From a virus: a DNA stretch of 64,000 bases. The stretch spans positions 108,941-172,940 of IMG/VR virus record IMGVR_UViG_3300046744_000223, one strand, 5' to 3'. The notes beneath the pieces are model-generated. The model saw only the letters and a list, made by a program, of their open reading frames with translations, was not told the origin of the DNA and made no database searches. Shown in pieces: positions 59,412 through 64,000 of the stretch (positions are counted from its first letter, which is position 1; the number at the start of each line of letters is the position of its first letter). The position numbers and the translations under genes are program-made.

Positions 59412-60575
59412 TTATCCTATAAAAATTGGTCGTGGTACTCTATTTAGAGTTTCTTCCAAATATTCAGATTCTTCTTTTCTTGCTTCCATCAATGCTCTAC
59501 GAGATGTTGATTCCAACATTTCAGTTAATTGAGTCATCAATGCTTCTTTTTCAGCAGATGCTTCATTACGAAGGTCTGACCCATCAAGTGTTACATCAGC
59601 ACCTGGTATTGGTATAGAAGAAAACTTAGAACGAACTGCACCTAACATCTCTTTAGCTAATGCTAATGAGTATCTAGCAATCCACTGCTTACCTGATGAG
59701 TTGATATTTGAGTATACTAATCTTCCAAATGGAGCGTTAGACAAGTCACTCACTACGTTTGAGTTTGCGATTGGTGAATTTACTTCACTATCTAAGGTAT
59801 AATCAAAATACACTTTAGCGCCAGTATCACCACCACTTGGAATTGGATATAGTCTAATTCTCTGACCATCAACATGGAATCCATATGATGATTTACGAAT
59901 CTTATCGTTGAATTCAATCGCTTGAAGTCTTAAAAGGTCATCAAACATTGGTTGCATCATAAAAGAAACACCCGGTGAGTAGTTACCCCAACCAAAGGTT
60001 TCCATCATTTGTTGTGAACCCATACCAGTACCTACGAATGGGTCAAAGTATCTAATGATTGCCGGTGGTTGTGTATGGTATACTCTTCTTAATGTGATAC
60101 CATTTAATGTTGAACCACTTTCTAATGTGATTACGTTATCATCACCCAAATCATAAATTTGCTGCCCACCTACCATTTCGAATGAACCAGTATAAACTGT
60201 AACTTTACCACCACTAAGTGCTTCAGTACCATAGTCCTTAGCAATATTTACTAAGTTCTGCATATTAGCATTCATATTTGTATTTGACAAATCTAAATCC
60301 AAATCAGAACCTTGAAGAGATAACATATTCTCTTTTGCTCTATATTGGTTTACTTGAGATGAATACTCACTTACAGCTTCTTCAAGACAAGCAAACATAT
60401 TGATGTCTTGTAGTTCGATATCTATTATAGGATACCCCAGTCGTTTAGCACACCACTCAGCCACTTTGGGGGCATCTGATTGGAATTGTGTATCACCATC
60501 AAAATACCCAAATGGAGTTGATGAACCACTTGCGAATGAGCCTGAACCTGGCCAAATTGGAATTGTTACTGACAT
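59412..60575 (-). CDS. Neck protein (T4 gp13-like)
   Basis: RLGYPIIDIEL, WIARYSLALAKEMLG..RSKF..IPGADVTLDG, P..IFIG. Confidence 0.85.
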   Translation of the reverse strand: MSVTIPIWPGSGSFASGSSTPFGYFDGDTQFQSDAPKVAEWCAKRLGYPIIDIELQDINMFACLEEAVSEYSSQVNQYRAKENMLSLQGSDLDLDLSNTNMNANMQNLVNIAKDYGTEALSGGKVTVYTGSFEMVGGQQIYDLGDDNVITLESGSTLNGITLRRVYHTQPPAIIRYFDPFVGTGMGSQQMMETFGWGNYSPGVSFMMQPMFDDLLRLQAIEFNDKIRKSSYGFHVDGQRIRLYPIPSGGDTGAKVYFDYTLDSEVNSPIANSNVVSDLSNAPFGRLVYSNINSSGKQWIARYSLALAKEMLGAVRSKFSSIPIPGADVTLDGSDLRNEASAEKEALMTQLTEMLESTSRRALMEARKEESEYLEETLNRVPRPIFIG

Positions 60576-60620: not shown

Positions 60621-62315
60621 TTATCTTTCCGTATTTCTCATAAAGGAAACTATGATATATCTTTTACCTGATGATACCGCCCTCGCCCCATGTTTATGGG
60701 TTATATTTCCAGGATGTAAAGTTACATACCCTATATCATTTTTTACTAATTCCTTTTGTCGTCTGAACCATGTACCACCACCCTCATACTCACTGAGGTC
60801 TGATAGTTGTACTAAACACGTTATATCAGACATATCATGGTGGATTGATAAATGACCTTGAGCATTTGGAGTGTATCTGGCTAAAAAGTTTTCTGATGTT
60901 AGGTTATCCCAACCCTTACCTTCCAATTCCCACATATGAATGGAAAGTGGCATGATATACTCTTTTAGAACATCCATGTAAATGTCGTGCATTCCAATAG
61001 TTTCTAATATCATATCAGTGGTTGGGTAATTTTCATGTCTATCAACTGTCCAAGCATCTGCATACTCAGCTTCTTCCCTAATCATTTTACAAAACTCAGG
61101 AGTAAATAATGGAAATGAGAACGTATTTGTAAATGGTTCATCTACAATCAAATCCCATTCTTTAGTTTTAGCTGAGTATGTTATGAATCGTTCTTTCCAC
61201 GAATGAGCGTTATCATAATATGTATACAATTCCGGATGTAGTTTATCAGGCATAACTTTAAACTCTATTGTATCTATCCATTTCTTATATATCTTTGGAA
61301 AGTCAAATTGCTTTACTTTATTTTTAGAATTATCTAATATTTTAGAAGATAGTGATGGTGAATTTTTCAACCTACCAATTTGCTGTATGAGTGAACTTTC
61401 TAAATCACTATCTTTTTTAGATGATGGTTCGATTATACCACACCCTTGTATTAGTGATAAAAGATTACCAGTATCAGTTGTTAATATCTTAACACCACCT
61501 TGCATCATTTCTAATGCGGTTATACAAAATGTCTCATCATACTTGGATGGGTACAACCAATATTCGGATTTAGAAATCTCATTATATAATTTTTTTGGAG
61601 ATAACCCATCGTAAAATGTAACACCATCTAAATCATCTTTATACGAATCATACCACTCAAGTGCATATGGTGGTGAGGTTACTATCAATGTAGCGTCTGA
61701 GTACAACGTCTTTATCTTCGGCCACATTCTTAGTAGGGTTTTTAATCCTCTATCTGGAGCTGATGAGTATATAAATCTATTTGGTATCTTTTCGTTAGAT
61801 ATACCACTCCAATCTGATAAGTCTATACCATTTGGGATTACTAAGACTTTGTGTTCTAACTCAGGATATTTTTTTAAGAATATTTCCTTTTGGTAATTCG
61901 ATACCAATACGATATTGGTCATTCTATCATCTAAGAAGAAATCATACCCATCGTTGTCTAATGTCATACCATTCCACCATGGATAGTATTCATTATTATG
62001 AATCCAAAAGTAAGATTTGTCGTATGTAATATTATGTTCAGCTAACTCTAATATATAATGAATATAGTTAGTACATATTACAATATCAAATTTATTATTT
62101 TTATATTTTTTGGAAAGTATCTCGTAATCTACATAGTCAACACCATCGATGTTGGCCGTGTCAACTTCACCAGTAACTACAACGTCATGGCCGTTTAACT
62201 TGAAGAAGTGTGCTAATTTGAGTACCATATACTCAGTGCCGCCAGCACCTTCGTTAATCCAAGTATCTAATGACCATTTAGATTTTTGATAACCTGATAC
62301 AAATAATACCTTCAT
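60621..62315 (-). CDS. Fusion of GT-B glycosyltransferase and PLOD-type procollagen lysyl hydroxylase
   Basis: N-terminal GGTE, YSSAPDRGL, YPSKYDETFCITALE; C-terminal LHPELY..DN..WKERFI..FPLF..C..ENYPTTD..NFLARY..HHD..YEGGGTWF..LHPGNITHKH..GKRYIIVSF, collinear with the PLOD lysyl hydroxylase domain as recalled. Confidence 0.88.
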   Translation of the reverse strand: MKVLFVSGYQKSKWSLDTWINEGAGGTEYMVLKLAHFFKLNGHDVVVTGEVDTANIDGVDYVDYEILSKKYKNNKFDIVICTNYIHYILELAEHNITYDKSYFWIHNNEYYPWWNGMTLDNDGYDFFLDDRMTNIVLVSNYQKEIFLKKYPELEHKVLVIPNGIDLSDWSGISNEKIPNRFIYSSAPDRGLKTLLRMWPKIKTLYSDATLIVTSPPYALEWYDSYKDDLDGVTFYDGLSPKKLYNEISKSEYWLYPSKYDETFCITALEMMQGGVKILTTDTGNLLSLIQGCGIIEPSSKKDSDLESSLIQQIGRLKNSPSLSSKILDNSKNKVKQFDFPKIYKKWIDTIEFKVMPDKLHPELYTYYDNAHSWKERFITYSAKTKEWDLIVDEPFTNTFSFPLFTPEFCKMIREEAEYADAWTVDRHENYPTTDMILETIGMHDIYMDVLKEYIMPLSIHMWELEGKGWDNLTSENFLARYTPNAQGHLSIHHDMSDITCLVQLSDLSEYEGGGTWFRRQKELVKNDIGYVTLHPGNITHKHGARAVSSGKRYIIVSFMRNTER

Positions 62316-62322
62316 ATTTTAT

Positions 62323-62922
62323 TTATTTAAATGGTTCACCACCCACCCACAATACAAAGGACTTTCGTGTACCTTTAGTTATAGGTGTTACTCTGTGTAG
62401 AAAGAATGATGGAAAAATAACAGCAGCTCCCTTTATACGTGGTGCTGTAATCCAACTACCACCAATATTAAATTGTAAATCACCACCCTCATATTCAGAT
62501 GGGTCGGATAATTGAACAGTTACTGAGACCTTCCGTTGGTTTTGTATACCAATACCACAATCCATATGCCAGTCGTACTGACCACCACCACTATAATATT
62601 CGGTATATTGAATTTGCTCTCTCATTTGAGTTAATTCAAAGTCCCACATGGTTTTATTAGCGGTCTTAATCATATCAGACAACTTTTCGTATACCCAATA
62701 CCACTCGTCTGATTGTGGACACCATTTAATTTTTGATTTTCTATAATCGGTGATTTTGGATTTAACATCTTGACCAGTTTGAGCGTCTACCCAATCCAAA
62801 TTAGTTGTGAGGGATTCTATATCAACGAGTTCGGTAGTAGTAAACCCATCTTTAAACCAGTAGTAATTTGAGTAGTCTACAAAGCTACGTGAACTATCAC
62901 TAAAATTAAAATTCTTTTCCAT
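62323..62922 (-). CDS. PKHD/prolyl-hydroxylase-type 2OG-Fe(II) oxygenase
   Basis: YDWHMD, RKVSVTVQLSDPSEYEGGDL, FPSFFLHRVTPITKGTRKS. Confidence 0.9.
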   Translation of the reverse strand: MEKNFNFSDSSRSFVDYSNYYWFKDGFTTTELVDIESLTTNLDWVDAQTGQDVKSKITDYRKSKIKWCPQSDEWYWVYEKLSDMIKTANKTMWDFELTQMREQIQYTEYYSGGGQYDWHMDCGIGIQNQRKVSVTVQLSDPSEYEGGDLQFNIGGSWITAPRIKGAAVIFPSFFLHRVTPITKGTRKSFVLWVGGEPFK

Positions 62923-62938
62923 AACTAAACTTATTTAC

Positions 62939-62946
62939 TATAAATA
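62939..62946 (-). promoter_or_regulatory. Putative late promoter TATTTATA upstream of the hydroxylase and GT-lysyl hydroxylase genes
   Basis: Recurrent intergenic octamer. Confidence 0.55.
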
Positions 62947-62957
62947 TGAAAATTTAT

Positions 62958-64000
62958 TTAATAAGATGAACCACTGAAGTAAGTTTCTACTACATAAAGA
63001 GGGTCACCACTTGAATAACCATATTCTTTGAATACCAACTTATCTAAAGACTCATCCCATTCAAAATATCCACCCGATAACTGGTTACCTTTATCACCAC
63101 CAGCACCTTGAGCACCTTGTGAACCAGTTTCACCAAGTGGTGAAGCGCCAGTCTGGCCTTTTTGACCCTCACCACCAGTATTGCCTTGTATACCTTTAGG
63201 ACCTTGAGCACCTTTATGACCTTGAACACCTTTAGGACCTTGACCGCCAGTTTCACCTTTTTGACCTTTAGGTGATAATCCAATTATACCCTTTATACCT
63301 TTAGGACCTTGAATACCTTTAGAACCTTGAACACCCTTATCACCACTATCACCTGAAATACCTGATGGTCCTTGAGCACCAGTTTCACCTTTTTGACCTT
63401 TAGGTGATGCACCTACTGCACCTTCATCACCTTGTGGGCCTTGAACACCTTTAGGGCCTTGAACGCCTTTAGGACCTTGAACACCTTTAGGACCTTGACC
63501 ACCAGTTTCACCTTTTTGACCTTTAGGTGATAATCCAATTATACCCTTTATACCTTTAGGACCTTGAATACCTTTAGAACCTTGAACACCCTTATCACCA
63601 CTATCACCTGAAGTACCTGATGGTCCTTGAGCACCCGTTTCACCTTTTTGACCTTTAGGTGATGCACCTACTGCACCTTCATCACCTACTCCACCTTGAA
63701 CACCTTTAGGGCCTTGAACGCCTTTAGGACCTTGAACACCTTTAGGACCTTGACCGCCAGTTTCACCTTTTTGACCTTTAGGTGATAATCCAATTATACC
63801 TTTTATACCTTTAGGACCTTGAACACCTTTAGAACCTTGAATACCCTTATCACCATCAGCGCCAGAAGCACCCGATGGTCCTTGAGCACCCGTTTCACCT
63901 TTTTGACCTTTAGGTGATGCACCTACTGCACCTTCATCACCTACTCCACCTTGAACACCTTTAGGGCCTTGAACGCCTTTAGGACCTTGAACACCTTTAG
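62958..64000 (-). CDS. Collagen-like (Gly-X-Y) fibre protein, C-terminal part (runs off window end)
   Basis: Manual translation ..GVQGPKGVQGGVGDEGAVGASPKGQKGETGAQGPS.. ending in non-collagen GNQLSGGYFEWDESLDKLVFKEYGYSSGDPLYVVETYFSGSSY*; missing from the ORF track. Confidence 0.93.
   Translation of the reverse strand, partial: KGVQGPKGVQGPKGVQGGVGDEGAVGASPKGQKGETGAQGPSGASGADGDKGIQGSKGVQGPKGIKGIIGLSPKGQKGETGGQGPKGVQGPKGVQGPKGVQGGVGDEGAVGASPKGQKGETGAQGPSGTSGDSGDKGVQGSKGIQGPKGIKGIIGLSPKGQKGETGGQGPKGVQGPKGVQGPKGVQGPQGDEGAVGASPKGQKGETGAQGPSGISGDSGDKGVQGSKGIQGPKGIKGIIGLSPKGQKGETGGQGPKGVQGHKGAQGPKGIQGNTGGEGQKGQTGASPLGETGSQGAQGAGGDKGNQLSGGYFEWDESLDKLVFKEYGYSSGDPLYVVETYFSGSSY
63200..64000 (-). repeat. 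255-nt (85-aa) tandem macro-repeat within the collagen gene
   Basis: ggtgataatccaattatacc recurs at 63271, 63526 and 63781. Confidence 0.9.

Follow-up and report, generated by a model that had tools for sequence, protein, structure and literature searches.

An uncultured marine virus genome (IMG/VR record IMGVR_UViG_3300046744_000223) contains three consecutive genes, all on the minus strand, that encode a collagen-like fiber protein, a 199-aa Fe(II)/2-oxoglutarate (2OG) oxygenase, and a 564-aa protein in which a glycosyltransferase is joined to a lysyl hydroxylase (LH) domain. The window analyzed here is the last 64 kb (positions 108,941 to 172,940) of this 172,940-bp record, which is ~90% complete according to CheckV. 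The spacers between the three open reading frames (ORFs) are 35 nt and then 7 nt. A preliminary description of the window had reported three co-oriented, consecutive genes beside the neck genes, and both the ORF list and the family matches agree with this (see the table below). It had also claimed that the phage modifies the lysines of its own collagen. As set out below, homology, substrate motif, and gene linkage favor that claim, and the modification itself is something that we infer.

The C-terminal part of the 564-aa protein was examined by sequence and by fold. In a sequence search of the Protein Data Bank, residues 357-559 match human LH3 (E 3.3e-28) and mimivirus L230 (E 6.1e-22, 28-29% identity), and no oxygenase besides these two was returned for the domain at E below 1. 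The protein also scores 38.3 bits against PF25238 (cut-off 31), a family that matches a choanoflagellate PLOD and an L230-like protein as well. The predicted catalytic residues H492, D494, H542, and R552 align with LH3 H667, D669, H719, and R729 (LH3 chain numbering was converted to UniProt numbering with an offset of +23), and R552, the 2OG-binding Arg, follows the distal His by ten residues. These four residues and ~60 further positions of the LH domain are invariant among 29 homologs, down to 41% identity. All of the motifs quoted in the preliminary description (LHPELY, WKERFI, ENYPTTD, NFLARY, HHD, YEGGG, LHPGNITHKH, and RYIIVSF) are present in the translation.

The AlphaFold2 model of the fusion protein has a mean pLDDT (predicted local distance difference test) of 88, and its C-terminal half has the fold of the LH family, that is, a double-stranded beta-helix together with the LH-specific N-terminal helices. 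A Foldseek comparison with known structures, which had been suggested as a check, returned both LH3 and L230 for this half: LH3 chains are the top matches, and superposition on L230 (6ax6_B) gives a target-normalized template modeling (TM) score of 0.84 and a root-mean-square deviation of 2.7 A. Model confidence is low precisely where the metal-binding loops lie (residues 490-492 and 538-543). A two-copy homodimer prediction for the LH domain (residues 352-564) scored 0.00, which says nothing either way. Judged by sequence and by the modeled structure, the C-terminal domain is a homolog of the LH domain of PLOD and L230, and the earlier statement that the C-terminal ~210 aa follow PLOD lysyl hydroxylase is borne out by sequence, fold, and intact catalytic residues.

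The N-terminal half is a different matter. It scores above the curated cut-offs of three GT4/GT1 families in Pfam (PF13439, 30.3 bits; PF13692, 29.4 bits; PF00534, 28.5 bits), and Foldseek returns PimA, BshA, and MshA (TM 0.65-0.73) along with glycogen synthases. An EX7E motif, which is the mark of retaining GT4 enzymes, is present as E261-TFCITAL-E269. No match to PF25342 (GT_PLOD) was found on the fusion protein; for contrast, gp218 of the cultured phage S-CAM9 matches that family at E 7e-47. The N-terminal transferase is, therefore, a GT4 enzyme of GT-B type and not a homolog of the GT-A domain of PLOD and L230. The protein had been described as a fusion of a glycosyltransferase with a lysyl hydroxylase; the fusion is right, and the transferase is GT4 rather than the GT-A type of PLOD.

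The collagen gene is confirmed as such, although what had been taken for a Gly-X-Y collagen gene is incomplete in the window, where the ORF runs open into the contig end. Its N-terminal 867 aa are encoded on the minus strand at the start of the same record (G000:C1:2-2602; PF01391, E 2.4e-86), where a 135-aa domain ending in HNT precedes 242 Gly-X-Y triplets. The C-terminal part in the window adds 97 triplets, and uninterrupted runs reach 133. The simplest reading is that there is one collagen gene of at least 1,213 aa, split where a circularly permuted genome was linearized. Alternatively, there may be two adjacent collagen genes, as some relatives have. Related contigs all break within collagen repeats too, and the rest of the 173-kb record contains no further collagen sequence.

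The lysines of the fiber are placed with great regularity. Every collagenous Lys is followed by Gly (90 of 90 if those in G4G interruptions are counted; 38/38 in the C-terminal part and 52/52 in the N-terminal part), and within triplets Lys occupies Y in 81 cases and X in none. X-Lys-Gly is the consensus of collagen lysyl hydroxylases. The fiber ends in a conserved non-collagen tail of ~40 aa, which is probably a trimerization or nucleation domain. The collagens of S-CAM9 and of one other locus (L042) end differently, in a sequence that by eye resembles a tail-spike intramolecular chaperone. The 135-aa domain at the other end of the fiber (G000:C1:2198-2602, minus; L015) is Hint/intein-like, with a weak Pfam Intein_splicing match (E 0.006), and it ends in ...FHNT right before the first Gly-X-Y. 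It may cut itself off the fiber.

Between the collagen gene and the fusion gene lies the gene of the 199-aa protein, which had been described as a PKHD-type 2OG-Fe(II) oxygenase, and this holds, given its PF13640 match and its likeness to PHD and PiuC proteins. By sequence it resembles PiuC (E 3e-9). Its AlphaFold2 model (pLDDT 84) leads Foldseek to PiuC, PHD2, and the Pseudomonas EF-Tu prolyl 4-hydroxylase, and its HxD...H...R set (H119, D121, H176, R186) is invariant among homologs. Its identity is 50% with the partner gene of a phage in which the module is split (L045; see below) and 34% with gp219 of S-CAM9. The role of a classical collagen prolyl 4-hydroxylase was considered and rejected because that enzyme needs X-Pro-Gly and Pro is almost never in the Y position of this fiber (Y 3, X 101). 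A literature search found no paper on the function of PiuC.

Features of the locus and its surroundings, in window coordinates
Feature	Position	Strand	Basis
Collagen-like fiber gene, 3' part (C-terminal 346 aa)	62958..64000	-	PF01391, E 1.5e-34; ORF 62958-63998 without start, open at contig end
Conserved non-collagen C-terminal tail, ~40 aa (GGYFEWD..L.KL.F..G...G...VETY)	62961..63080	-	Same tail ends the collagens of L007, L014, L023, L026, and L027
TATTTATA upstream motif, candidate promoter element of the enzyme operon	62939..62946	-	16 nt before the oxygenase start codon
199-aa Fe(II)/2OG oxygenase, prolyl-hydroxylase-like (PHD/P4H, PKHD/PiuC) group	62323..62922	-	PF13640 2OG-FeII_Oxy_3, E 8e-14
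GT4-LH fusion gene, 564 aa	60621..62315	-	
GT4 (GT-B, retaining type) glycosyltransferase domain, aa 1 to ~350	61266..62315	-	PF13439, PF13692, and PF00534 above cut-offs
EX7E motif	61509..61535	-	Translation; E261 and E269 invariant in 29 homologs
LH-type Fe(II)/2OG dioxygenase domain, aa 357-564	60624..61247	-	LH3 and L230 matches; PF25238
Predicted LH catalytic residues: H492 and D494 (60834-60842), H542 (60690-60692), R552 (60660-60662)	60660..60842	-	Alignment with LH3
gp13-like head-tail adaptor (neck) gene	59412..60575	-	phrog_211, E 2e-15; directly downstream of the GT4-LH gene; context only

An exhaustive search with the LH domain recovered 2,169 clusters at 50% identity (E up to 1e-3), comprising phage, bacterial, and eukaryotic forms. 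Eukaryotic PLODs are among the matches (cestode, choanoflagellate, and springtail LH3) at E ~1e-22 to 1e-25. Local domain mapping indicates that the LH domain of this family occurs in several layouts: alone, GT4-LH, GT4-GT25-LH, GT25-LH, GT25-GT_PLOD-LH, and GT_PLOD-LH. The GT25 insert of the GT4-GT25-LH proteins matches human COLGALT1, and the ~900-aa GT25-GT_PLOD-LH proteins match LH3 (E 1e-130), L230, R699, and COLGALT1. A quick maximum-likelihood tree built from 122 LH domains unites the eukaryotic PLODs and the ~900-aa, L230-like GT25-GT_PLOD-LH proteins in one clade (SH-aLRT, a Shimodaira-Hasegawa-like approximate likelihood ratio test, 98), and the fusion protein falls within another group, made up of GT4-LH and GT4-GT25-LH forms (SH-aLRT 97). 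Phylogeny against PLOD and L230, another of the checks that had been suggested, thus places the domain in the same LH family, outside the clade of PLOD and the L230-like proteins. The fusion protein belongs to the LH-domain family and is not a PLOD proper.

The collagen hydroxylysine galactosyltransferases belong to GT25, and the genome has a GT25 gene of its own, COLGALT1-like and standing alone (G000:C1:71815-72606, minus; L031:1087-1878; PF01755, E 2e-14). The only Protein Data Bank matches of its product are COLGALT1 chains (E 5.6e-14, residues 305-534), and the product shares 34% identity with the GT25 insert of the three-domain enzymes. An FkbM-type methyltransferase gene is found near it.

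Comparison with other genomes is informative about the company that these genes keep. Phage homologs of the LH domain are linked to collagen genes with Lys in Y in 4 of 5 lineages examined. Relatives at 99% and at 56-60% identity have, in order, the collagen gene, an oxygenase gene of 199-200 aa, sometimes a GT2 gene, the GT4-LH gene, and the neck genes; the downstream order of adaptor, two genes, sheath, and tube is also kept in related phages. The GT2 glycosyltransferase, of 429-430 aa, lies between the small oxygenase and GT4-LH in two related phages (L007:6710-7999 and L023:6495-7787), and the source phage is without it. The phages with GT4-GT25-LH proteins show the same gene order, with collagens of 1,800-1,900 aa upstream. 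In a lineage with other downstream genes, the oxygenase, GT4, and LH are encoded separately behind Lys-rich collagens; the stand-alone GT4 of this split-module lineage is 33% identical to residues 1-351 of the fusion protein (E 2e-49), and its LH domain, which occurs in GT25-LH or as a lone LH, shows 52% identity. Such fusion and fission of neighboring parts suggests that they function jointly and is the strongest comparative argument for this. The cultured cyanophages S-CAM9 and S-PRM1 have, in one gene row, genes for a collagen-bearing tail fiber (22-23 Lys in Y and 0 in X), for two P4H-like oxygenases, and for a protein of GT25, GT_PLOD, and LH that was deposited as "hypothetical protein." Scans of viral contigs with a stand-alone LH (P0144) and with a GT_PLOD-LH protein (P0167) returned no loci.

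In some of the related loci, a second, nearly Lys-free collagen gene (with, e.g., GSSGTNGTDG repeats) lies beside the Lys-rich one (L025:3-1568, L045:3-1709, and L046:2-2263). The two classes of collagen may differ in being modified.

Given these observations, we consider it fairly probable that the operon is a fiber-maturation operon whose products hydroxylate and glycosylate the phage's own collagen fiber. The fiber protein, at least 1,213 aa long, would be made in the host cytoplasm, probably as a structural (late) product. Going by homology, the LH domain would use Fe(II), 2OG, and O2 to hydroxylate Lys in X-Lys-Gly on chains that are still unfolded. The fused forms suggest that the GT4 domain, with a nucleotide sugar as donor, would then either glycosylate the new hydroxyl directly or extend a first sugar already placed there. 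That first sugar would come from the separate COLGALT1-like GT25. The small PHD/PiuC-like oxygenase may add a second kind of hydroxyl. The modified chains would trimerize from the conserved C-terminal tail to give the virion fiber.

Several points weigh against this proposal. The activities assigned to the phage proteins, relatives included, are predictions. The position of the LH domain outside the eukaryotic and L230-like clade means that its specificity could differ from theirs. The stand-alone GT25 gene is ~100 kb from the operon and is tied to it solely by homology to the fused forms. In bacterial collagen-like proteins, Pro in X with Thr or Gln in Y is usual, and Lys in Y stabilizes the helix. 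Because this usual layout is similar to that of the fiber and Y-position Lys has this other use, the Lys pattern is consistent with a lysyl hydroxylase substrate and not diagnostic of one. One phage lineage has a lone LH without nearby collagen. Also, five bacterial homologs with the GT4-LH layout (41-46% identity; from Granulosicoccaceae, a Bugula symbiont, Aliishimia, and a Rhodobacteraceae metagenome-assembled genome [MAG]) have no collagen ORF within 10 kb, and their neighbors are unrelated or housekeeping genes. Synteny of collagen with PLOD-like genes, for which a survey had been suggested, therefore holds for the phage lineages counted above and does not extend to the bacterial homologs.

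Some of these points lead to other explanations. The enzymes might act on the collagen and yet not serially on Lys, with the GT4 domain O-glycosylating Thr or Ser and the LH domain hydroxylating Lys or some other residue. The collagen-like region of BclA, the surface fiber protein of Bacillus anthracis, is O-glycosylated on Thr without any lysyl hydroxylase. In the N-terminal part of the phage fiber, Y is occupied by Thr more often than by any other residue (96 of 242 triplets), and such abundant Thr could be the target of the GT4 domain, whose acceptor is not readable from sequence. In animals and mimivirus, hydroxylysine is glycosylated by GT-A enzymes, and GT4 is not related to these. Against this, the Y position of the C-terminal part has far more Lys (31) than Thr (9). 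Moreover, the GT4 domain is fused to LH, and close relatives have a COLGALT-like GT25 inserted between the two, which fits a stepwise pathway at one site. We regard separate targets as unlikely. We think it equally improbable that the fusion enzyme has a target other than the collagen, be it a protein of the host surface or cytoplasm, a different virion protein, or a small molecule, and that its adjacency to collagen reflects shared ancestry in a variable fiber region. The bacterial homologs standing alone among housekeeping genes and the phage lineage with a lone LH would fit such a role, and glycosyltransferases in the hypervariable region of marine myophages have been interpreted as modifiers of the host surface (PMC7029224). 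However, linkage to Lys-rich collagen recurs across lineages that have different neighbors and domain layouts, collagen-like ORFs with Lys in Y do occur elsewhere in bacterial genomes with GT4-LH (2 of 4 searched), and the closest characterized relatives of the enzyme all act on collagen. Less probable still is a catalytically silent LH-like domain, whose role would be to bind collagen or act as a chaperone on behalf of GT4 or of fiber folding. The low AlphaFold2 confidence at the metal-binding loops would be in keeping with a silent domain, but the iron triad, the 2OG Arg, and the many further positions that are invariant among the 29 homologs form the pattern of a working enzyme.

One of the bacterial collagen-like ORFs is in the Aliishimia MAG (L033; G003:C1, ~1.497 Mb). 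It has GDK/GDT repeats in which Lys stands in Y 64 times and in X once, and ~1.3 Mb separate it from the GT4-LH gene of that genome.

The system that we propose, modification of the fiber by the enzymes encoded beside it, has several known counterparts. Mimivirus L230 (LH domain structures 6ax6, 6ax7, and 9nev) is likewise a single viral polypeptide with a glycosyltransferase and a C-terminal LH, and that virus also encodes collagen-like fibers. In the account of Luther et al. 2011 that is given in PMC8968730, L230 is a bifunctional collagen lysyl hydroxylase and hydroxylysine glucosyltransferase. However, it belongs to a giant virus of amoebae and has PLOD-type GT-A domains, whereas the phage enzyme has GT4, a bacterial host, and an LH from another clade; also, the activity of L230 has been measured, whereas that of the phage enzyme is predicted. 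Human LH3/PLOD3 and COLGALT1 (PDB 6fxk and 8zgc) offer a homologous LH with the same HxD...H...R set and the expected X-Lys-Gly motif, and the phage has a COLGALT1-like GT25 as well. Here, the GT-A glucosyltransferase and the accessory domain of LH3 are replaced by the nonhomologous GT4, and the phage proteins are cytoplasmic and of bacterial type, without the context of the endoplasmic reticulum. Closer in setting are the Synechococcus phages S-CAM9 (gp218) and S-PRM1 (gp162), cultured marine T4-like phages with a collagen tail fiber, P4H-like oxygenases, and an LH protein in a row. Unlike the fusion protein, their enzyme combines GT25, GT_PLOD (PF25342), and LH without GT4, a layout nearer to that of L230, and its LH is very divergent (long branch). 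BclA is comparable as a glycosylated prokaryotic collagen-like surface fiber, and differs in that its sugars are O-linked to Thr and need no hydroxylase.

Among viruses, only mimivirus is counted as an exception to the view that hydroxylysine and its glycosides mark animal collagen, and collagen-like proteins of prokaryotes and phages are usually taken to be unmodified (PMC8968730). In the literature we found no paper on a lysyl hydroxylase in a bacteriophage, or on hydroxylysine in phage tail fibers; the published accounts of this chemistry that we found concern animals and giant viruses. Other dioxygenase families have been predicted to act on bacterial collagen-like proteins (Iyer et al. 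2010; PMC2938197). A 2022 review describes prokaryotic collagens as largely unmodified, sets viral ones aside, and mentions the BclA collagen-like glycoprotein in general terms (PMC8968730), and a 2025 paper refers to collagen-modifying enzymes in some bacteria and viruses as a general statement only (PMC12279948). If our proposal is correct, the chemistry of collagen lysine hydroxylation and glycosylation would extend to viruses of bacteria, in common marine phages. Compact cytoplasmic enzymes that can be expressed in bacteria would also become available for producing recombinant collagen with modifications, and the origin of PLOD and COLGALT could be approached from a new side. Glycosyltransferases in the fiber region of marine myophages would then not necessarily modify the host surface, contrary to what has been assumed (PMC7029224). 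A wider extrapolation, which we put forward tentatively and consider somewhat doubtful, is that tailed phages of marine bacteria carry a complete, modular pathway that puts glycosylated hydroxylysine on their own collagen fibers. Its parts would be LH, a GT25 resembling COLGALT, and a further transferase, and the nonhomologous GT4 would take the place of the glucosyltransferase of PLOD. In that case, this hallmark of animal collagen would be widespread in the virosphere and may have originated or diversified in phages and bacteria earlier than in animals.

As to the genome itself, the source virus is an uncultured marine T4-like myovirus. The nearest cultured phage is Microcystis phage Mel-JY01, whose tail sheath shares 57% identity with that of the source virus; a megablast search of the region against cultured phages gave no match. 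A cyanophage origin was rejected, because psbA is lacking. The stretch or its close relatives occur in seawater and marine metagenome runs from 17 studies. Past the gp13-like adaptor, two unassigned genes occupy the gp14 and gp15 positions, followed by the tail sheath and tail tube genes. In one metatranscriptome run (X20), the stretch is represented by two contigs only (164 and 241 nt), both inside the GT4-LH gene; carry-over of DNA is possible, so they are not proof of transcription.

The octamer TATTTATA, read in the sense of the minus strand, precedes the oxygenase gene and occurs in the window at 2345, 16211, 40711, 53213, 57688, 58026, 60604, and 62939. Seven of these eight copies are intergenic, and intergenic DNA makes up ~8% of the window. 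The motif also precedes the gp13-like gene, a gene of 93 aa, and the sheath gene, and lies 16-37 nt ahead of several starts. We regard it as a candidate promoter element for this phage group. The preliminary description had the enzymes sharing a putative late motif with the structural genes. A motif is indeed common to them and the neck and tail genes, but it is TATTTATA in the sense orientation, the reverse complement of the T4 late box. The late box itself (TATAAATA) was also considered as the motif of the operon, and it is neither enriched nor sense-oriented ahead of these genes. The GT4-LH gene lacks a separate spacer, and its cotranscription is presumed.

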